In this document: piece by piece, positions 16,301 to 26,203 of the stretch
How positions within the stretch are numbered: the first letter of the stretch is position 1
How the letters are laid out: every line of letters starts with the position of its first letter
IMG/VR virus record: IMGVR_UViG_3300037722_001361
Coordinates: 1-26,415 of that record
Source: a virus
Taxonomy: Duplodnaviria > Caudoviricetes
Strand: one strand, 5' to 3'
Length of the DNA: 26,415 nucleotides
Position numbers and translations under genes: made by a program
The notes under the pieces: model-generated
What the model was told of the DNA's origin: nothing
Databases searched by the model: none
What the model saw: only the letters and a program-made list of their open reading frames with translations

Positions 16301-17851
16301 ATGGCTTGGGAAAAAGTCGCCGCTGGCCAGAAGCTCAGGCAAACGCCGATCCATCACGCCGGCTACATCAACGACACGATCGATGTCGTCAATGCACACA
16401 AGGAAGGTCGGCTGCAGGGGCCCAGCAGTTCCCGTCAAGGCTCTCAATCCCGCGTTCAAGTCGAGGTTCGCAATCTGACGGGCGGCGACCTGGGGCGTGG
16501 CCAACTTGTCCAACTCGGGGCGCACCTGCTCACGGACGTCTCGGAAGAGCATCCGTGGTTCGAAGGCAATACGGTTGCCGATCCGGTCCGCAGCAGGTTC
16601 GCAATCCTCAACCGGCCCCTCAAGGCTGGCGAGATCGGACCAGCACAGATCGCCGGTGTCTGCCTGGCCTACATCTTTATCCTCGACACGGCTCACAAAC
16701 ACGCGGTGCCGTCGGACGGCGCTACCGTACTGGTTTCGAGCAAAGTAGGCCCGGTGGAACTCCTCATGCCGGCGCCCGGGCTGGGCCTGAGGCACGTGTG
16801 GGTCAAGCTCGATCACAAGGAGAACTACTGCTACCACGTGACCCTCGGCGCGGGCATCTCCGCCGGCGGCAGCGGCAGCGTGCTTCTGCCCGACAACACA
16901 ACGATCACGGCCGTCAACTGGTCCGCCGATACGGCGCTCTCGTCCGGCGACCGCTGCCTGTGCTTCAAAGACCTGGTCGACGACACCTACTGCCTCATCA
17001 AGACCGGCGGTCAGTCGCAGACGAAGATCTGGCATTCCGCAGCCAATGCCAACATCGCGGCCGGCGCCAGCGGCGGCGTCACGCTCTCGACGGGCGCAAT
17101 CGTCACGGCGACGAACTGGTCCAATGACGTCGACATCAACACCTCGGACAAGATTCACGTCTACCAGGACCCGTTCGATAGCCTCTATTACGCGATCAAG
17201 TCGGGCGGCGGCAGTGGCGTCCGTCGCTTCAAGGGCAACCTGTACACAAACCTCACCCACACGGATGCCACGGCCCAAGTTACGAACCTCGCGGCCCTGG
17301 ACGGGGCGGGCGGGCTTCCGGCAACGCCGTTGACCGTCGTGAATCTGTTCGACCTGGCCGGCGAGACCGGCGACGACGTGTTGTTGACGGAGGATTTATC
17401 GGGTGAAGGCACCCAGTACCTCTTGGAGCAGATCAAGCACAAGGCCATCGAAGACGTGATTGACGTAAAGACGGATGACGATTTTGACCCGACGAAGATC
17501 CAGCAGACCAAGCGAACGATTCTGGGCGTGGCCGGCATGGACGACGCCGAGGATGAGGATGTCTTGGAATGGAGCACGATCAATCTCGTTCAGAACGTGG
17601 CGGTCGACAGCACCAGCGATCCCACGAAGCTCTACGAAACCTTCGTGATCGTTCCCGTCCTGCCACGCACCACCTACAGCCCGAGCAACAGCGACATCGT
17701 CGACCTGGAGGATGTCGAGGTCGATACCGACGTCAAGACCGACAGCCCAGGCAACCCGACGAAGCTGCAGCAGACCAAGCGGACGATCAAGTCGTTCCCC
17801 AAGCCCGACGACTCGGCCGACAGCGACATCATCGGCATCGAGGAGTGCTGA
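16301..17851 (+). CDS. Tail spike/fibre-like protein with two sets of internal repeats
   Basis: 516 aa; duplicated ~60-aa unit (TAVNWS/TATNWS...IKTGG/IKSGG) and three acidic ~45-aa units containing PTK(I/L). Confidence 0.6.
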   Translation: MAWEKVAAGQKLRQTPIHHAGYINDTIDVVNAHKEGRLQGPSSSRQGSQSRVQVEVRNLTGGDLGRGQLVQLGAHLLTDVSEEHPWFEGNTVADPVRSRFAILNRPLKAGEIGPAQIAGVCLAYIFILDTAHKHAVPSDGATVLVSSKVGPVELLMPAPGLGLRHVWVKLDHKENYCYHVTLGAGISAGGSGSVLLPDNTTITAVNWSADTALSSGDRCLCFKDLVDDTYCLIKTGGQSQTKIWHSAANANIAAGASGGVTLSTGAIVTATNWSNDVDINTSDKIHVYQDPFDSLYYAIKSGGGSGVRRFKGNLYTNLTHTDATAQVTNLAALDGAGGLPATPLTVVNLFDLAGETGDDVLLTEDLSGEGTQYLLEQIKHKAIEDVIDVKTDDDFDPTKIQQTKRTILGVAGMDDAEDEDVLEWSTINLVQNVAVDSTSDPTKLYETFVIVPVLPRTTYSPSNSDIVDLEDVEVDTDVKTDSPGNPTKLQQTKRTIKSFPKPDDSADSDIIGIEEC

Positions 17852-18498
17852 TGGTCGCCCTCAAACGCAAGGCCAACACAAGCAAGCTACTCCGCAAGAC
17901 GACCAGCCCGGCTCTGACCACCGATCCCAAGTGCTGCTGCGGACCATTCGTCGCCATCAACGTCTGCAACTTCAACAAGTGGTCCGACGAGATCCACGAC
18001 GCGGTGCTCAACGGCAACATGCTCACCCGGCCGACCGTGCATGCCGACGGCGCCTGCGGCGGCGGCTATTACGCCAACATCGATCCGCTGCCAGCCTACT
18101 GCGCCCTCCAAACCACCGGCGGCGTCAAGTTCCGCTGCTGCGGCACCCAGGTCGGCGGCACATGCGGCGGCACGACGTACCCATCGGGCGTCTATCCGGC
18201 GACCGGCGCCGCGAACGAAGACCCATGCGCCTCGCCCAAGTCATCGAATACGCAGAACTGCGGCACGCTTGGCGATTGCAGCGGCGACCTGATCACGCAG
18301 TCCTTCCCATCGAGCTACCTGGTCACCGGCACGAACACACTCACCGTCAATCGAACCGGCGCGACGCGCTCAGCAGGCAGCTATGGCGTCGTCGAGGTCG
18401 CCAAGCTCGAGCTCGTCTCGGGCACCTGGCGCATCAACACGTTCCTGGCCACCGGCACCTACGGCTCCGGCAACCTCACCCTGACCTGGAGCCTATAG
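17851..18498 (+). CDS. Cys-rich putative tail/receptor-binding protein (215 aa)
   Basis: TGATG coupling and AGGAG SD give start 17851 (MVALKRKANTSKLLRK...KCCCGP); Gly/Thr/Cys-rich. Confidence 0.7.
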   Translation: MVALKRKANTSKLLRKTTSPALTTDPKCCCGPFVAINVCNFNKWSDEIHDAVLNGNMLTRPTVHADGACGGGYYANIDPLPAYCALQTTGGVKFRCCGTQVGGTCGGTTYPSGVYPATGAANEDPCASPKSSNTQNCGTLGDCSGDLITQSFPSSYLVTGTNTLTVNRTGATRSAGSYGVVEVAKLELVSGTWRINTFLATGTYGSGNLTLTWSL

Positions 18499-18501
18499 AT
18501 A

Positions 18502-18894
18502 ATGTCAACATCCTGGCAGTGGTTCCCCGACACCAAGACCGCCATCTGCTGCTACTGCGGCTTTAGCGCCACCTACGCTAGCGACTTCCCCGGCCACATC
18601 GATCACGACTGCGATCCGGCTCGGCATCCACCGATCGCCACACCCCAGGGCCTGCCCGTCGGCCGCAGCCCGCGCCCGGAAAACCTCTCGCACACTCCGC
18701 TCGACCGACTCCTGGCCTGCATCCACCGCGGCCCCGAGCTGCGCCAAGAACCCTGCATAACCTGCCCCTCCGGCACCCGCATCAAGATCTTCGCCTGCGC
18801 AATCCATGGCGACTGCCAACTGGACGATAAGATCCCAGGCCTGAAGTCGTGTTGCGTATGCGCTGAGCGCACGCCCACTCCGGTTGGACAGTAA
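18502..18894 (+). CDS. Cys/His-rich hypothetical phage protein (130 aa)
   Basis: CCYC, CIHRG, CITC, CAIHGDC and CCVC motifs; starts 3 nt after the upstream stop. Confidence 0.75.
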   Translation: MSTSWQWFPDTKTAICCYCGFSATYASDFPGHIDHDCDPARHPPIATPQGLPVGRSPRPENLSHTPLDRLLACIHRGPELRQEPCITCPSGTRIKIFACAIHGDCQLDDKIPGLKSCCVCAERTPTPVGQ

Positions 18895-18908
18895 CGACGG
18901 GGCGTCAG

Positions 18909-19202
18909 CTACCAGCGCCGTCGACCTCTGCGCCGCGTTGGTCTTCGCCCATCTGGGTGCCACCCTCGTCTGCGCCGACGTGAAGGCGCTTGGCCGCCGA
19001 AACTGGAAGCCAGTACACCCAACACGATAAACGGAAGAAGCAAACATGTCCGTAGGATGGCCCCGATTCCGCGCAGGGCGATCCATATCAAGTCCCTCAC
19101 CAAAACGCCGGCGGCAACGTCGAAGATCCGGCCGCCCAACAGCATCCGGCCTAGGAAGAATAGCATCACCAAAGGCATGAGCATGGCAACGATCACTTCC
19201 AT
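18909..19202 (-). CDS. Small membrane protein with ~2 TM segments and an Arg-rich C-terminal tail
   Basis: Hydrophobic N-terminal and central segments; tail RRRRRGWHPDGRRPTRRRGRRRW; GAGGA SD. Confidence 0.7.
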   Translation of the reverse strand: MEVIVAMLMPLVMLFFLGRMLLGGRIFDVAAGVLVRDLIWIALRGIGAILRTCLLLPFIVLGVLASSFGGQAPSRRRRRGWHPDGRRPTRRRGRRRW

Positions 19203-19242
19203 TTGTCATTTCCTCAGCGTCTTTGTGTGAAGGGCAGTGAAG

Positions 19243-19279
19243 AACCGCGCCGACGACACGCGACGCCATCGGCGCGGCT
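19243..19279 (-). terminator. GC-rich hairpin, terminator- or attenuator-like
   Basis: GCCGCGCCGAUGGC...GUCGUCGGCGCGGU stem whose G-U pairs only form on the - strand, followed by UCUUCAC (weak U tract). Confidence 0.45.
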
Positions 19280-19305
19280 TAGTTGAGCCTCTCGGGCACG
19301 TCGGT

Positions 19306-19467
19306 TTAGCCGAAAATCCAGCGAAGCACCCTCGACTTCCGCGGCCTTTGCCCGTTCCGGTTCAAGCGGAAGTTTCGGCAGAAGAACGAGTAGCACCGCT
19401 TGCACAAAATCCGGCCGCCCCACACGCGGATGCGCCGAATTCTCCGACCACATGACGAACACTTCAT
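19306..19467 (-). CDS. Tiny basic zinc-finger protein (53 aa, MKCSSCGRR...LCKRC)
   Basis: GGAGGT SD upstream of ATG 19467; CxxC-x15-CxxC; very Arg-rich. Confidence 0.65.
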   Translation of the reverse strand: MKCSSCGRRIRRIRVWGGRILCKRCYSFFCRNFRLNRNGQRPRKSRVLRWIFG

Positions 19468-19559
19468 GGAACACCTCCGGTGAAGTTGAAAGGGAACCGG
19501 CGGGTGTGCGTCCTTTCCCTGCCGGTCGTGGATCAGTTGCCGGCTCCGCCGACAGACAA

Positions 19560-20258
19560 CTAGGCCGAGCGAATGTCCCGAGCTTGAAGTCCCTTCGGAA
19601 CGTCGACGACCACGAAACTCACGCGGTCGCCAACGCGGAACCTGAAGCCCGTCGGAGCATGGCTGACGTGGCACCACACCGTCTGGCCGAGAACCTCATC
19701 GTTCGCGAACGCGAACCCGCGCCCCTCGGCCACGTAGCTGATCCGCCCGAAGTGCCGGGCGAGATCGGTCACGTGTAGCCGCGCGGTGTTGTTCCCACCC
19801 GTGATCTTCTCGTGGTGCACCGACCGAATCGTGGTCCCCCTCGCCTTCGGGTGCTCCTCCTTGTTCGACCATGGCACATTCAACAGGTGCTTGAGGAGGT
19901 CCCTCTGCGAACGGTCGCACCAGGAGATCGAGAACAGGTGCTCCACGATCAGACTCGGCGGCAACAGGGGTAGCTCGATGCCACGGCCGGCATCCACGCA
20001 CCTCCCGTTGCCGTTCGCGTTGGGGGAAAACTCGATCGTATGATCGAACACCACGTGTCGGTTCGCCCCCAAGTACTCCACCGTCACGCTCTTCAGATTG
20101 TTGAACGTGCGAATGACCTGAAGGTCATGCAGCACGTTAGCGCGCTCGGCAGCAGACGAGAAGAGCCGCCGGTTCAACCGCCGGGCCACGAACTCCAGCG
20201 CGTGAACGGCCTTCTCCACCTGCTCACGAACGGCCTGTGGAACTTGGAAATCATGCAT
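19560..20258 (-). CDS. Cold-shock (OB-fold) domain protein with an N-terminal domain resembling bacterial HORMA (232 aa)
   Basis: GGAGGT SD before ATG 20258. C-terminal CSD motifs G.I....GRGFAFA, VWCHVS, GDRVSF, KGLQARDI. The N-terminal ~160 aa resemble the bacterial HORMA pattern by eye. Confidence 0.75.
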   Translation of the reverse strand: MHDFQVPQAVREQVEKAVHALEFVARRLNRRLFSSAAERANVLHDLQVIRTFNNLKSVTVEYLGANRHVVFDHTIEFSPNANGNGRCVDAGRGIELPLLPPSLIVEHLFSISWCDRSQRDLLKHLLNVPWSNKEEHPKARGTTIRSVHHEKITGGNNTARLHVTDLARHFGRISYVAEGRGFAFANDEVLGQTVWCHVSHAPTGFRFRVGDRVSFVVVDVPKGLQARDIRSA

Positions 20259-20356
20259 CAAAGCACCTCCATCATTTGTTCGCCGCTCCCGTTCCATAGG
20301 AGGCGGCGCAACAGAAACAGAATGGGCAAATCTTCCTGATGCCCCGAACAAAACCT

Positions 20357-20403: not shown

Positions 20404-20583
20404 CTACACGCCAGCCAACTGTTTCCGCGCCCGGCGAGCCGACTTGCGCTCGTCCCGGAGCAACCTGCGACGGCAGCGCGCGTCGCAGAAGATCCGCCCC
20501 GCCGTGTCCTCCACTGCTTGGTGCCACCACAGGCGGCCACCGCAATTTGCACAGAGTTCCCTGCATTTGTTCGAGCGTCTCAT
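20404..20583 (-). CDS. Tiny TRASH/MYM-like zinc-finger protein (59 aa), absent from the ORF track
   Basis: GAGGA SD; MRRSNKCRELCANCGGRLWWHQAVEDTAGRIFCDARCRRRLLRDERKSARRARKQLAGV, with CxxC...FCxxxC signature. Confidence 0.65.
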   Translation of the reverse strand: MRRSNKCRELCANCGGRLWWHQAVEDTAGRIFCDARCRRRLLRDERKSARRARKQLAGV

Positions 20584-20939
20584 CTGGTGTCCTCATTTCG
20601 TTGTGACCGCTATTCAGTGGGCCGCGGCCGATTACCCGTTGCCATATCCGAGTAGTCAGCAAAGTTGGCTGAATCCGGCACCGTAGCTTCCAAAAAAACT
20701 GGCGATGACGGCGCGGCGCGAACCTGTGCGGCACTGAGGCCGGAAATTGCGGCGGAAGCGTTAGATGCGGCCCCACGCGATTGCCACCGGCCGAGCACAG
20801 AAGTTTTCTTTCAGCGGCCCGACTGGATCGCTAGAATGAAGTGCTGGTGGCGGTAGAAGGACTTCCGGCACACGCTGAGGGCTTAAACGTGCTGCCCAAA
20901 TCCGGCCAATAGGCTTTGCATTGCGCTCGGAGGTTCCCA

Positions 20940-21527
20940 ATGGGTCAAGCGGGTGACGAGGCGGGGGCGCGTTCCACACGGGCTCGCGAGTCAGATTTAC
21001 GGGCGGAGTACGCCAAGCAAGTCAACGAGCGATACCTCGTGCGGCTGAAAAACTTCGTTCGGGCGACGCTCAATTCGCGTATCCGCAGGCGGGAAGGAAC
21101 GAGTGATGTCGTTCAGGATGCCCTCAAGAGCTTTTTTGAGAGCAGCGCAGAGATCGATGATCCCGATGGACTTTGGCCGCGCCTCCGGCTTTTTGCAGAG
21201 CGAAAAGTTAAGAACGCTGCAAACAAACATAGGGCAGCAATGCGCGACGTCGGCCGCGAGGCCACAGTGTCAGCAACGGCACATTACGATTCAATGGATC
21301 CGCTGATGAACGCCATCGACCCCGCAAGCCAAGGGGCACCATTGGAGGCGCTGATCATCGCTGAAGAATTGACCCGTTTGACGGCCGACGAAATGGAGAT
21401 CGTGTCCATGCGTCGCGAGGGAGCTAACTTCAACGCGATCGGTGCAAAGCTGGGGTGTGACGAGAGCACCGTCAGAAGAAAGTGGAACCGCCTCCTGGCC
21501 CGTTGGGACGCCGAGACCGAGGACTGA
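20940..21527 (+). CDS. ECF sigma factor, Ser/Thr-kinase-associated type
   Basis: GGAGGT SD; region 2 IRRREGTSDVVQDALKSFF and RRAAMRDVGRE-like motif (HRAAMRDVGRE); region 4 HTH EGANFNAIGAKLGCDESTVRRKW; directly upstream of a kinase. Confidence 0.88.
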   Translation: MGQAGDEAGARSTRARESDLRAEYAKQVNERYLVRLKNFVRATLNSRIRRREGTSDVVQDALKSFFESSAEIDDPDGLWPRLRLFAERKVKNAANKHRAAMRDVGREATVSATAHYDSMDPLMNAIDPASQGAPLEALIIAEELTRLTADEMEIVSMRREGANFNAIGAKLGCDESTVRRKWNRLLARWDAETED

Positions 21528-21547
21528 CTTCACTGCAGGGTGCTCAA

Positions 21548-24500
21548 ATGAGCACGTCCGATGTGCGCCTGCGACAACAGGATCTGACGCCCACTGGTTC
21601 TCCGATCAGTGAGGCTGACTCGGATCATCGCGCCCATCGTATTGACTGCTTTGAAATCATCAAAGAGCTTGGTCGGGGTTCGTTCGGAGTCGTGTATTTG
21701 GCTCTTGAAGTCCAGCCCAACCGCCAGGTTGCCATCAAGGTACCGATTCTTCCCAGGGATCCGATCGCCCGGCGGGAACTCGCTGACAGGTTCCTGGACG
21801 AGGCGGGGAAAGCAGCAGCCTTTACCCATCACGGCATTGTCGAAATCTATAGGGTCGGGGTGACGTCGGGGTCGCCTCATTGGCCCGACGGGACGCCATT
21901 CGCTGTTATGCCGTATCTCGAAGGGGGGACTCTGCAAACGCTTCTGGACGAGTACAAAGACCGGGGAGAGACGCTTCCGTATCGTGAGACGGCGCGCATC
22001 TTGATGCAGGTCGCGGACGCCCTCCACACTGCTCACACGACGGGCCGCCTCATTCACCGGGATCTTAAGCCATCAAACATACTCCTCGACTCAGAACGAA
22101 CGCCGCGGGTGGCCGACCTTGGCCTAGCCATTCACAAGTCGCAACTGGCCACGGGTGCGAGCATCCTCGCCGCGGGCACACTTGCGTATATGGCCCCCGA
22201 GCAGCTCGCGGGGAGCACGGCGTTGGATCGCGCCGACATCTACAGTTTCGGCGTCATTCTTTATCGGATGTTGACCGGCGAGCTTCCGTTCGAGGAAACT
22301 CCTCAGCACTTGCTGATGGTCAAAATCATGCAAGATAATCCAGAGCCAGTCCGGCAACGAGCTCCATTCGTGCCGCGCTTGCTCGCGGACATTTGCGAAC
22401 AGTGCCTGCGGAAGGACCCCGCAGATCGTCCATCAACTGCAAGAGACCTCTTCAGTTCGCTCCAGAAATGGCTAGCTGACGACGCAATTCGCCCCGAGCC
22501 GTCGGGCTTGTTTGTGCCGAATTGGACGCTGGCACAAACGCCACCGAAGCAATTGCTGTGGCGTGGGAATTTTATCGGCCGCCGGGCGCAGCTCGCCGAT
22601 CTACAAGCGCGACTCGGGCCGAACCACATCGTGCCAATTGTGGGCCCCGTGAACTCAGGGAAGTCTGCGTTGATCGCGAAGTTCTTTTCGGAACCTGAAC
22701 GGCCAACCGAAGTGGCCGCGAGATTCATCGTCTCGTCTTCCTATCCGATTGGCCTAGGCTACATAGACCTCGCAGCACATAGCCCTCGCTCGTCGCCGGT
22801 TCTGCGTGGACTGTGCGTCATGCTCGGTGCCAAACTCGGAAGTATGCAGCTACTTGACGATCCCGAACGCGTAGACGAGCGTTGCCAGGCGTATTTGTTC
22901 GATGAGTTGATACCAGAGAGATTTGCCAGCTTAGTTCCACTTCTGGTATTCGACAATGCAGATGCTGTGCTGGCGCATCCCGCACATCGCGGCGATTTGG
23001 ATCGCGTATTGAAACTTTCTCACTTTGAGGCTGGCGGTGCCATCGTCGCGATCGCGAGCGGTTCAGTGCCCGACGGGGCGGGCAAGCGTCGGATCCAGGC
23101 TCCCATCGTCCTTGATGCTTACCTCACGTCCGACGAATGGATTGAGGCGAAGGCATTGTTCGTGGATGCTGGGGCAGATGAGCAAGTTGTTTCTGAGGGG
23201 ATTGCTATGTTGGGAGGCGAGCTCGCGCTGTTCACTCCCGGCGACGTTATTGAGGCAATACGAACGACCCAGCGGAAGTCTGAAAGCCAACAGTTTGGCG
23301 CGAGCGATGTGATTAGCGCTTTATGGGCTGCTTCCTCTATTTCGAAACAAGTTTCGGACCATCTTGAACGCATCGGGCTACCCCAGGGCGCGGTCGAACT
23401 TGCTGAGCTCAGTCAACGGGGCTGGCTTCTGGTTCTTGCGATCCTTGCCAGGGAAACACAACTGCGCCAGTCGATTAATGATGTCTTGCAACCTGAACTC
23501 GCATCCCTTCTGATCTCGAATGAGGTTCTAGTTGCGAACTCGGATGGAACCCTTTTGCTCTCGCAGACCATTGCAAATGTACTCCGTCTGGAACTCATTG
23601 GTCGGCTGGCTGGCCAGCAAGGAACAGTACTCGAAAGGTTGCTCGCCGATGGTGTGGATCGCCTACTTCTGATCGCAAGTCGCGGCGCGAACTCCGAGTC
23701 AGGGCCCATGGTGGGCGTCGAAGAGGCCGTGGCATGGCTGGAACGAGCGGCCCCGGGCGCCGTCGTTCTACGCGATCGATTGATCGGCTTTCTCGCTATC
23801 GAGGCCGTCGATGACGTTATCTACCCAGTCGCTCGGGATGACGCGGTGGGATTCGCGCAACGCTCCGTTCCGATCTCTTCGGGCGATGTCCTTCAGCCGT
23901 TGTTGGGTCAGCTCGCGGTGGCCACTCGCTTTGAACAGGACACAACTGCTATGTTCGCCCTTCTATCGTCGGCGATTCGCGTGGCGGACAACGCCGACTC
24001 ACTGTCGAGCACCGAGGTGCGACTCTTAGACATTGCAGGCTACGTAACCGCAAGACGATACAGAAGGTTTAGCGAAATAGTCGGCGTTCGGGAAATGCTC
24101 GTACCGCGACTCCGCGAGTTGCTTATTGACGAAACGTGCGACGACGTAGGCCTAGTGAAATGGAGTGCAAGCTGGTTTCTCAACTGCGCATGGTTGTGTG
24201 TCGCAATCGGCCAATTCCCTCAAGGACGCGATTATCTGCACTTTGCCAAACAAGCTATCCACCAGCTTCCATCCGCGTCGTCTTTACACAGCATGCTCGA
24301 TTCGATGTGGCTCAGGGCACGATGTGCCACGATCGAGGCACGTCTGGCGGCAGGCTCGGCCGATAGAAGGGCAGCGCTTCGAGCCGCTGCTGATGCCACG
24401 GCTGACGGCCTGACGACCTCGAACGGCCACCCAACCTGGGTTCGCAGGCATCTTTCTTCGGTCAGGCGCTTGCTCGATGAAGTCGGCGAGCGGCACAATC

Positions 24501-26203
24501 GACTCCAAATTACTCAGGCAGCTGAGGATCGTGTTGCAGACTCGCTTAGGCAATCCGATGATCGGTCCTGGCCACTAGCGGTGTCCACTAGCGCGTCGGC
24601 CCTCTGGCGCTTTTGTGCCGAACGCGAAGCCGACTCCGAGGCGCAGCACTCAGCAGCATGTCGCGCGCTCGCACTTCTGCGCTGTCGACAAGCCGAAGTG
24701 GATGCAGCATTGGCGCGCAAAGATGGGGAGGCGGCGCTTGAACTGGGGCGATCACTGGCCCTCGTTTCCTCGTGTAAGTGCTCCTCAAAGGACCTCCTTG
24801 CCCGCAAGGAGCTGCTCACGGAGGCGCAAAGGCTACTGGCGAGGACTGTAGATCTGGCGCCAACGGCTGAGGCTTGGCGCTTGTACCTGCGCGTGCTGGA
24901 TTTGGACGACCCGGACGCGGCTATGAGCGAATGGACATCTGAGGTAATGCGACCCCGAAGACCGATCCCGCCGGCGCTCCGAAGCGCGATCACGACCTAT
25001 CGTGGATGGGGGAAAGCACGTCGCACGGCTCAAGATGGAAGAACGGAGCTATGGTGCTTCCAGCGGGAATGGGAAGCTGCTTGGTCGTTCGAGCAGATAG
25101 CCCTATCGCAGTATGCCGTCGATTGGGAACGGTTGCCTCCTCGCGAGAGGCAAAAGGTTGTGAGGAAATACTACGCAGATCGCCTCAAGCGCTTAGACTG
25201 GCTTAGACGAGAATTCGAGCCCTTCCCTCAGGTTTTTGTCACTTTGGCGTGGACTGAATGCCAGTGTCAGCATCTCTTGGGCTTTCGTGTGAATGGCGGC
25301 TCCGGAACCAGTGATTATACCGCCGTGGCACGCATCTTTGCCGACGCTGACAAGGTGCTGCCAGACAACTGGCATATTGCCGCAGCTAGAGCGCGTTTCT
25401 TGAGGTATGTGTGGAATCACGATGAGGCAATCGCAATGTATAGGAACGCCATTGCGATGGCGCCTCGCGCTGGTGAGCGTCGTAGATTAAGTATCCAATT
25501 CGCAGAGGTGATTTTGACCAAGATCCGGCATTTGGATGATAGCCCCCGATCAGCCGAGGACGTGTCGCTTTTGCGAGAGGCTTGGGATTGCCTTCAGGGC
25601 CTGGAAGCCTTTGTAGGCGACGCTCGAAGCGCGTCGATGTTGCGCGATCGCGTCGCTTTCGAGCTCGGCTACCGGATCGACTGGAACGAACTCGACCACG
25701 CATATGCACTCGTGATGGAGGGAGATGACTACGTGCAATCTGTGGTGAAGAACGGTCCAGCGATACGAAGCCAATCTCCCGAGAGGGCTGAGCGACTGGC
25801 AGAAGCCGTCCAGATGCATTTTACGGATGTTGATATTCTACGCAGTTTCGGCAGCTTGTTGCTGCGCCGGGCGGAGCGATGTGACAATGTCGAGGAATCG
25901 ATGCGCTATGCGAGGATGGCGTATACGTCGTATACAGCTTGCCGCGTACTTGAAGAAGCATGGTGGAAAAAGGACAAAGAGAGGCCCACTACTCGCTTTC
26001 AGCGCGCGCGATGCATCCTAGTAGCTGCCGAACGGTCAAGGCGTGTTTCTCCATTTGAGATCGACCTGGAGGGGAAACCGAATAATCTCCGTTACGCGCA
26101 AAGCCTCTTCAACGGGGTGGCGAACCGGTCCGTCGGCGCCTTCAGTCGGATGGCAAGTTCAATGACCGGCGCGGCCGCCCGGCTCGAAAACGTCCTTACG
26201 TAG
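21548..26203 (+). CDS. Hanks-type Ser/Thr kinase fused to a STAND-like P-loop NTPase and a long helical/TPR-like region (1551 aa)
   Basis: Kinase motifs LGRGSFGVVY, VAIK, HRDLKPSN, DLG, GTLAYMAPE, DIYSFG; NTPase motifs FIGRRAQL, Walker A GPVNSGKS, Walker B LLVFDNAD; ~1000 aa Ala/Leu/Arg-rich helical tail; no clear TM helix. Confidence 0.88.
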   Translation: MSTSDVRLRQQDLTPTGSPISEADSDHRAHRIDCFEIIKELGRGSFGVVYLALEVQPNRQVAIKVPILPRDPIARRELADRFLDEAGKAAAFTHHGIVEIYRVGVTSGSPHWPDGTPFAVMPYLEGGTLQTLLDEYKDRGETLPYRETARILMQVADALHTAHTTGRLIHRDLKPSNILLDSERTPRVADLGLAIHKSQLATGASILAAGTLAYMAPEQLAGSTALDRADIYSFGVILYRMLTGELPFEETPQHLLMVKIMQDNPEPVRQRAPFVPRLLADICEQCLRKDPADRPSTARDLFSSLQKWLADDAIRPEPSGLFVPNWTLAQTPPKQLLWRGNFIGRRAQLADLQARLGPNHIVPIVGPVNSGKSALIAKFFSEPERPTEVAARFIVSSSYPIGLGYIDLAAHSPRSSPVLRGLCVMLGAKLGSMQLLDDPERVDERCQAYLFDELIPERFASLVPLLVFDNADAVLAHPAHRGDLDRVLKLSHFEAGGAIVAIASGSVPDGAGKRRIQAPIVLDAYLTSDEWIEAKALFVDAGADEQVVSEGIAMLGGELALFTPGDVIEAIRTTQRKSESQQFGASDVISALWAASSISKQVSDHLERIGLPQGAVELAELSQRGWLLVLAILARETQLRQSINDVLQPELASLLISNEVLVANSDGTLLLSQTIANVLRLELIGRLAGQQGTVLERLLADGVDRLLLIASRGANSESGPMVGVEEAVAWLERAAPGAVVLRDRLIGFLAIEAVDDVIYPVARDDAVGFAQRSVPISSGDVLQPLLGQLAVATRFEQDTTAMFALLSSAIRVADNADSLSSTEVRLLDIAGYVTARRYRRFSEIVGVREMLVPRLRELLIDETCDDVGLVKWSASWFLNCAWLCVAIGQFPQGRDYLHFAKQAIHQLPSASSLHSMLDSMWLRARCATIEARLAAGSADRRAALRAAADATADGLTTSNGHPTWVRRHLSSVRRLLDEVGERHNRLQITQAAEDRVADSLRQSDDRSWPLAVSTSASALWRFCAEREADSEAQHSAACRALALLRCRQAEVDAALARKDGEAALELGRSLALVSSCKCSSKDLLARKELLTEAQRLLARTVDLAPTAEAWRLYLRVLDLDDPDAAMSEWTSEVMRPRRPIPPALRSAITTYRGWGKARRTAQDGRTELWCFQREWEAAWSFEQIALSQYAVDWERLPPRERQKVVRKYYADRLKRLDWLRREFEPFPQVFVTLAWTECQCQHLLGFRVNGGSGTSDYTAVARIFADADKVLPDNWHIAAARARFLRYVWNHDEAIAMYRNAIAMAPRAGERRRLSIQFAEVILTKIRHLDDSPRSAEDVSLLREAWDCLQGLEAFVGDARSASMLRDRVAFELGYRIDWNELDHAYALVMEGDDYVQSVVKNGPAIRSQSPERAERLAEAVQMHFTDVDILRSFGSLLLRRAERCDNVEESMRYARMAYTSYTACRVLEEAWWKKDKERPTTRFQRARCILVAAERSRRVSPFEIDLEGKPNNLRYAQSLFNGVANRSVGAFSRMASSMTGAAARLENVLT

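Follow-up and report, generated by a model that had tools for sequence, protein, structure and literature searches.

The gene at 19560..20258 (-) of a 26,415-nucleotide virus record (the window, by which we mean the whole stretch analysed) encodes a 232-amino-acid protein, P0001, in which a predicted HORMA domain is fused to a C-terminal cold-shock domain (CSD). P0001 is, by its predicted fold, a member of the HORMA superfamily whose closest sequence family is bacHORMA_1, yet it does not qualify as a component of type III CBASS. The reading that we favour, to which we give somewhat less than an even chance, is that the protein acts as an unreset closed-state adaptor that would tie a peptide of a partner to RNA or single-stranded DNA, probably inside defence modules. 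We infer peptide capture, nucleic-acid binding, the lack of an ATPase reset and a role in defence from the evidence set out below.

Predicted structure of the HORMA domain

An AlphaFold2 model of P0001, built from an 11-sequence alignment, has a pLDDT of 88.4 and a pTM of 0.83. Foldseek placed the E. coli HORMA chain 6u7b_B first among the matches to this model (E 1.7e-5), followed by P. aeruginosa HORMA2, CspA, Mad2 and Rev7. Alignment with VIA-align, run on 998 of the Foldseek chains, matched aa 1-165 to P. aeruginosa HORMA2 (6p8r_C, chain residues 4-166) at Z 15.9, with 154 residues aligned and an rmsd of 3.6 A; the corresponding Z-scores were 14.0 to Rev7, 13.9 to Mad2 and 13.2 to the E. 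coli HORMA. The HORMA domain (aa 1-165, 19764..20258 (-)), which is thus defined by model and structure match, has helices A (8-27), B (36-51) and C (116-125), named from the HORMA2 match, and strands at 55-63, 69-77, 106-113, 141-146 and 157-164. It contains the features expected of a HORMA domain, namely a sheet of three strands against which helices A, B and C pack, a C-terminal safety belt and a beta8'/beta8'' hairpin. The putative belt is the coil that leads from helix C to the hairpin (aa 127-140, including W130; 19839..19880 (-)), and the predicted hairpin (aa 141-164; 19767..19838 (-)) carries the family motif H148-x-x-K-I-T-G-G155; the HORMA2 match includes both belt and closing hairpin, up to residue 165. 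A HORMA domain had been proposed for aa 1-165 in a sequence-only reading of this DNA, from the order of its motifs, and the AlphaFold2 model and the Foldseek search bear that proposal out; all of the motifs then quoted are present in P0001 and conserved in its family.

The model is in the closed form with its safety belt empty, and it overlays peptide-bound HORMA2 at an rmsd of 2.7-2.8 A. The three best structural matches are chains that are described as closed by Ye et al. (10.1101/694695).

Searches by sequence detect the CSD and not the HORMA domain. P0001 itself has no match to a HORMA profile, aa 1-165 has none in the PDB by phmmer or profile, the HORMA part finds nothing in NCBIfam or PHROGs, and the ESM Atlas gave no usable match (its own model of the protein is poor, with a pTM of 0.30). 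Among 46 family members, the PADLOC HORMA profile weakly matches two, and PF18138 (bacHORMA_1) matches 20 at E<=1 in the region from helices A-B to the first strands; the best of these matches (E 1.9e-4) scores 21.8 bits, below the gathering cut-off of 35.6. Apart from the CSD and PF18138, no family was matched by more than two members.

The most conserved positions of the HORMA part are D45, L55, G93, E95, P97, L126, W130 and H148-G155. W130 in the belt is kept in 45 of 46 members, as are H148, I152 and T153 individually, and belt residues 131-140 are variable at a preserved belt length. One rival reading is a locked scaffold, in which the HORMA domain would no longer bind peptide and would instead provide dimerisation or an extra nucleic-acid surface for the CSD. 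Conservation is strongest in the hairpin (H148, K151, I152, T153, G154 and G155) and in the D89/G93/E95/P97 loop, both of which adjoin the CSD, and not in the variable stretch 131-140 of the belt; four CSD alignments start at residue 95, which hints that the D89-P97 loop lies beside the CSD; and P. aeruginosa HORMA1 is, according to 10.1101/694695, a scaffold that does not bind peptide. However, the belt has kept both its length and W130, and the model superimposes well within 3 A on peptide-bound HORMA2. Since main-chain peptide capture by HORMA domains needs no conserved belt residues, the variable belt does not tell against capture, and we consider loss of peptide binding unlikely.

The cold-shock domain and the constancy of the fusion

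The remainder of the protein (aa 167-232; 19563..19760 (-)) is a CSD with the RNP-type aromatics F182, F184 and W195 together with H197. The Pfam CSD profile matches P0001 at E 9.5e-4 with a score of 19.4, below its cut-off of 27, and aa 166-232 of the model align with CspA (1mjc) over 67 residues at Z 12.3 and an rmsd of 1.4 A. F184 is present in all 46 members, position 182 is F or Y in 44, position 195 is F, W or Y in 44, and H197 is kept in 28; model and conservation together show a five-stranded OB barrel with RNP1 and RNP2 aromatics. Position 175, which corresponds to the first-strand aromatic of CspA (taken to be Trp11), is not conserved. CSD searches returned CspE/CspD-type matches, as well as weak matches, to the CSD only, of two retron effector profiles (PADLOC CSD_V and NCBIfam retron_eff_Se72). 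It is likely that this domain holds single-stranded RNA or DNA.

The C-terminal CSD had also been called from the sequence, and its fusion to the HORMA domain extends throughout the family. Three family searches gave 11, 46 and 21 proteins, and the HORMA-CSD family is rare, with about 60 proteins whose named members belong to the Planctomycetota and, in one case, the Verrucomicrobiota. In the third search the profile was confined to the HORMA part and the range was 79-293 aa, so that stand-alone domains would have been findable; 19 of its 21 proteins carry a CSD, and the other two end in the middle of the HORMA domain. Similarly, 61 of 64 scored proteins pass the threshold of a CSD profile that was built from 46 of those same proteins, and one of the 61 (P0047) looks frameshifted in its tail. 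The fusion searches covered proteins of up to 466 aa. Full-length matches were found in 5 of the 401 genomes of an order sample and, in a phylum sample, in the seed genome only, with seven candidates scored per genome in these samples. Seven weak phylum-sample matches, and the locus L008, match nothing but the CSD and do not enter the locus counts. In a quick tree the window group (8 rows, 100%) and a CRISPR group (20 rows, 98% SH-aLRT) form separate clades, and a third group of 38 rows holds most of the family members, almost without context data.

The N-terminus and the predicted closed state

In the model no strand precedes helix A, that is, there is no N-terminal beta1, although a single model may miss an open state; many members have only about 4-8 residues ahead of helix A. 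Trip13 grips an alternating Ser/Thr N-terminus that is conserved to residue 17 (10.1101/694695). An alternating Ser/Thr run of at least three is present in 1 of 59 HORMA-CSD members and one of at least four in none of the 59, and in 26 of 59 (four of these being truncated rows) no more than 16 residues lie before K16; in 12 of 64 members the N-terminal segment is hydrophobic instead. Mad2 that has lost beta1 is locked in the closed form (PMC13381836); HORMA-CSD proteins are therefore unlikely, if the model is right, to switch from open to closed as the CBASS HORMAs do. Meiotic HORMADs, according to PMC13381836, have no stable open state and bind peptide by way of an unbuckled state. A role as clamp or adaptor fits HORMA-CSD better than one as gate.

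A gated protein would be a peptide-dependent sensor and effector in one, in which the HORMA domain closes in response to a phage peptide and the CSD, thereby positioned or freed, binds RNA and arrests the cell. Almost no linker separates the two domains; the CSD begins about 4 residues past the last hairpin strand (strands 157-164 and 169-177), so that movement of the belt would move the CSD, and the pTM of the model suggests a defined domain arrangement. The CSD is catalogued as a retron effector in the two profiles that P0001 weakly matches, and the retron CSD effector has an anti-phage role. According to 10.1101/694695, moreover, CBASS HORMAs signal only when closed. Against gating stands the missing beta1, given what its loss does to Mad2, and with neither beta1 nor a Trip13 handle it is hard to see how the protein would be turned off or reset; we therefore think it improbable that the protein works as a sensor of this kind.

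The gene and its surroundings in the window

A Shine-Dalgarno-like GGAGG (20266..20270 (-)) stands 7 nt before the ATG of the fusion gene, and homologues share the start methionine of P0001. Around the gene we found no sigma-70 promoter, no excess of terminators and no Rfam match, and no RNA runs are listed as holding the region. The runs that best hold the stretch are sediment metagenomes. A Logan contig of run X1, which may be the source sample, spans 17963-20226 with zero differences, so the end of the phage tail region is joined to most of the HORMA-CSD gene in that contig as well; partial coverage of the gene, also with zero differences, comes from two further runs (X2 and X3).

The virus record that makes up the window is linear and estimated to be about 59% complete; genes for the terminase, portal, head protease, major head and tape-measure proteins lie between 705 and 15495. 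Between terminase and portal, on the strand opposite to the phage genes and in a low-GC stretch, it carries a PD-Lambda-1-like anti-phage gene (3243-5138 (-); PADLOC E 2e-115) with DUF4041 and T5orf172/MUG113. At the end of the tail region (16301-18894 (+)) are three unannotated ORFs, two of them Cys-rich and none with a PHROG match.

The HORMA-CSD gene belongs to a four-gene unit on the minus strand, directly after the last plus-strand ORF of the phage side (18502-18894). Upstream of the fusion is the gene for a 59-aa Cys4 zinc-finger-like protein with a basic tail (20404..20583 (-)), and downstream are those for a 53-aa basic protein with a CxxC/CxxC pattern (19306..19467 (-)) and a 97-aa hydrophobic protein with a basic tail and weak holin-like matches (18909..19202 (-)). 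The upstream gene is kept at two other loci, L002 (57%, E 2e-16) and L003 (53%, E 2e-13). L002 shares both downstream genes, the 53-aa protein at 48% (E 2e-4) and the 97-aa protein in the same position at 31% (E 1e-6), and L003 has a weak trace of the former, in its C-terminal half only (E 0.03). Just past the unit in L002 lies an ORF (L002:2908-3204) whose product looks, by eye, like a REP-associated tyrosine transposase. Beyond the unit in the window come a divergent ECF sigma factor (20916..21527 (+)) and a 1573-aa Ser/Thr kinase (21482..26203 (+)) that has a weak AAA_22 domain and, towards its C-terminus, a long region of which about 1000 residues are unannotated; over the kinase the GC content drops from ~0.63-0.66 to 0.55-0.60. 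The kinase is not a Trip13, and it was not found at the other loci. The zinc-finger/HORMA-CSD/zinc-finger/membrane-protein set is a conserved unit that in the window probably stands at the end of a prophage, and the region would represent either the prophage end itself or its flank.

This setting raises two further interpretations. The first is a regulator outside defence, an RNA chaperone or antiterminator that would be controlled by the ECF sigma factor and would bind the co-encoded zinc-finger or membrane protein. The window and L002 each have a divergent ECF sigma gene upstream, and L003 may have one too (judged by eye, with no Pfam match); the sigma factors of the window and L002 give no mutual BLASTP alignment. 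The CspE/CspD-type CSD matches would suit such a regulator, and the window unit contains no recognisable toxin or nuclease. However, the family is rare and patchy, as the 5 of 401 genomes indicate, and is found at CRISPR, NYN/PARP and prophage sites in the manner of defence cargo, which makes a purely regulatory role quite doubtful, more so than the scaffold or the gated sensor. The second is a phage-borne decoy that jams the type III CBASS of the host, as might be imagined for a gene in a virus record whose unit lies right after the tail genes. Relatives of HORMA-CSD were absent from three viral-contig scans and from annotated phage and plasmid records (noise at E=6 only), and the other loci look chromosomal or CRISPR-linked; we regard a decoy as very improbable.

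Gene neighbourhoods across the family

We compared 13 distinct loci, namely the window, L002-L007, L009-L012 and L029-L031, with L006 and L010 counted once as they hold the same proteins. Seven of the 13 (L005, L006/L010, L007, L011, L012, L029 and L030) are CRISPR-linked. Cas2-Cas1-RT genes adjoin the fusion gene by profile in L005, L006/L010, L011 and L029 (the Cas2 of L011 by eye) and by eye in L012; in L007 a Cas2 is seen by eye at the contig end, and L030 has only a short CRISPR array. At five of these seven loci there are type III effector genes, Cas6 or CARF-HEPN to the side, and the RNA-related or defence neighbours across all loci comprise Cas2, Cas1, RT, Cas6, Cas10, Cmr/Csm, CARF-HEPN, CRISPR arrays, NYN and PARP. 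Two of the seven CRISPR-context copies are broken, L012 being a C-terminal remnant and L030 frameshifted, and because the CRISPR-linked members fall into one clade of the quick tree a single event may account for the link. In the clade of the window there is neither a CRISPR gene nor a tandem-CSD partner (below) nor a recognisable effector, and six L005 spacers gave only chance matches of 10-14 nt to the window.

L005, L010/L032 and L012 are type III-D-like CRISPR loci with CARF-HEPN and a separate RT gene after Cas2-Cas1, and L032 also has a CARF-AAA-HTH regulator. Between HORMA-CSD and cas2 in L007 (1442-1607) and L010 (10590-10860) is a gene for a small hydrophobic protein with a Gly-Cys-Gly-Cys start. 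A LemA-like gene is present in L009.

At 7 of the 13 loci (L004, L005, L006/L010, L007, L009, L011 and L031) the gene directly upstream of the fusion encodes a tandem-CSD protein (L005:6432-7145, L010:8803-9597, L009:1638-2258, L011:8938-9681, L004:9267-9821 and L031:8959-9483). The partner is made up of two CSD-like domains, to which members of the CRISPR clade add a zinc ribbon; a G-x-G-x-x-x-G motif is conserved throughout the six sequences aligned. The partner also occurs in the large third tree group (L004 and L031). This (zinc ribbon)-CSD-CSD family is uncharacterised and has been seen so far only directly upstream of HORMA-CSD genes; a search for it matched 3 of 401 genomes, all of them already in the query alignment, and is therefore circular as support. 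Directly after the HORMA-CSD gene of L004 (L004:10681-12567) are an NYN nuclease-like gene, a gene for a 184-aa Cys/His protein with no Pfam match and a PARP-like gene, a candidate defence operon.

These neighbourhoods suggest how a closed-state adaptor might act. The safety belt would clamp a short stretch of a partner protein in a one-way manner, with the peptide probably captured via an unbuckled state as in the meiotic HORMADs, while the CSD would hold single-stranded RNA or DNA; no ATPase would reset the HORMA domain. The partner is likely to be either a co-encoded protein, namely the tandem-CSD protein (seven loci) or the small zinc-finger or membrane proteins (window), or a phage protein. 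The adaptor would then bring RNA to the machinery of its module, RT-Cas1-Cas2 or type III CRISPR in one clade and the NYN nuclease in L004. This adaptor role is favoured by the match to closed folds, the constant fusion, the kept CSD aromatics, the missing Trip13 handle, the RNA and defence contexts and the PD-Lambda-1-like gene in the window; the confinement of the CRISPR link to a single clade, the two broken CRISPR copies, the lack of CRISPR, tandem-CSD or effector genes in the window's clade, the variable position 175 and the tendency of AlphaFold to give one state count against it. HORMA-CSD likely belongs to a defence module that has not yet been described. More speculatively, and in our view with a rather low probability, the family could stand for a class of bacterial HORMA defence module free of second messengers, in which the HORMA-CSD protein holds a peptide of a phage or a partner and itself delivers RNA or sequesters it; in the RT-linked type III CRISPR clade it would, together with the tandem-CSD protein, select and load RNA for spacer acquisition by RT-Cas1-Cas2.

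CBASS parts at the loci

Neither a CD-NTase nor a Trip13 was recognised among the 26 window ORFs scanned, in 119 ORFs of 11 loci by Pfam (an ORF set that missed some real genes) or in 61 selected ORFs by PADLOC. The SMODS profile, which covers only part of the CD-NTases, matched in none of eight records searched, the window's among them, with positive controls and on incomplete assemblies; six of the loci are on contigs of less than 8 kb. A Walker A scan of 14 sequences found only the window kinase and one unrelated frame in L004. No second HORMA was recognised at the loci; searches of 401 Planctomycetota genomes with PF18138 and of eight records with the PADLOC HORMA profile, each lacking a responding control, gave no match. 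The original remark that no CD-NTase or Trip13 lies nearby thus holds for the window, and the three marks of type III CBASS that we looked for, a CD-NTase in the operon, a Trip13/Pch2 in the operon and a Ser/Thr N-terminal tail, were not found. Elsewhere, in genome G004 (L035:3-1951), a JAB-domain gene truncated by the start of its contig is followed by a membrane protein; the gene could belong to a type II CBASS that lost its cyclase at the contig break.

Comparison with known systems

No such fusion came up in our literature searches, a set that excludes Burroughs et al. 2015, in which bacterial HORMAs were defined and which may mention it; PMC7159879 mentions HORMA and CSD separately. CspA/CspE, the retron Se72-type effector and CSD-Cmr6 share the CSD fold and RNP aromatics with P0001, and CSDs appear in defence catalogues; these proteins differ in having no HORMA domain in the records compared, and the matches are weak and to the CSD only. 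The type III CBASS HORMAs (E. coli MS115-1, PDB 6u7b/6p8v; P. aeruginosa HORMA2, 6p8r/6p8s/6p8u), which we take to be those named Cap7/Cap8, have the same fold, belt and closing hairpin (Z 13.2-15.9). In contrast, HORMA-CSD is only 9-18% identical to them, lies below the Pfam cut-off and is fused to a CSD; no CD-NTase, Trip13 or second HORMA was recognised at its loci, the Ser/Thr handle is missing and the model has no beta1, and some members have a hydrophobic N-terminal anchor.

Rev7 and Mad2 (Z 12.3-14.0) are adaptors that in their closed state hold the peptide of a partner; they differ in consisting of one domain, with no CSD, and in having an open state in which beta1 takes part. HORMAD1 (8j69) matches the P0001 model at Z 11.7, and meiotic HORMADs are remodelled by Pch2/TRIP13. 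As described in PMC13381836, these proteins lack a stable open state, and Hop1 has a C-terminal chromatin-binding domain. They are eukaryotic and carry a different appended domain, and the likeness is one of architecture, with no shared ancestry claimed. HORMA-CSD may work more like Rev7 or a meiotic HORMAD than like the CBASS switch.

In the literature covered (without Burroughs et al. 2015), bacterial HORMAs appear only alongside a CD-NTase and a Trip13-like ATPase. In the HORMA-CSD family the fold is used with neither partner recognised, fused to a nucleic-acid-binding domain and encoded beside genes for RT-Cas1-Cas2 or NYN. With only two domains and a small size, HORMA-CSD lends itself to testing what bacterial HORMAs clamp and whether they function without an ATPase reset, and it bears on a possible use of accessory RNA-binding factors in RNA spacer acquisition. 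The family is also a third architecture among bacterial HORMAs through which the relation of bacterial to eukaryotic HORMA proteins can be viewed.
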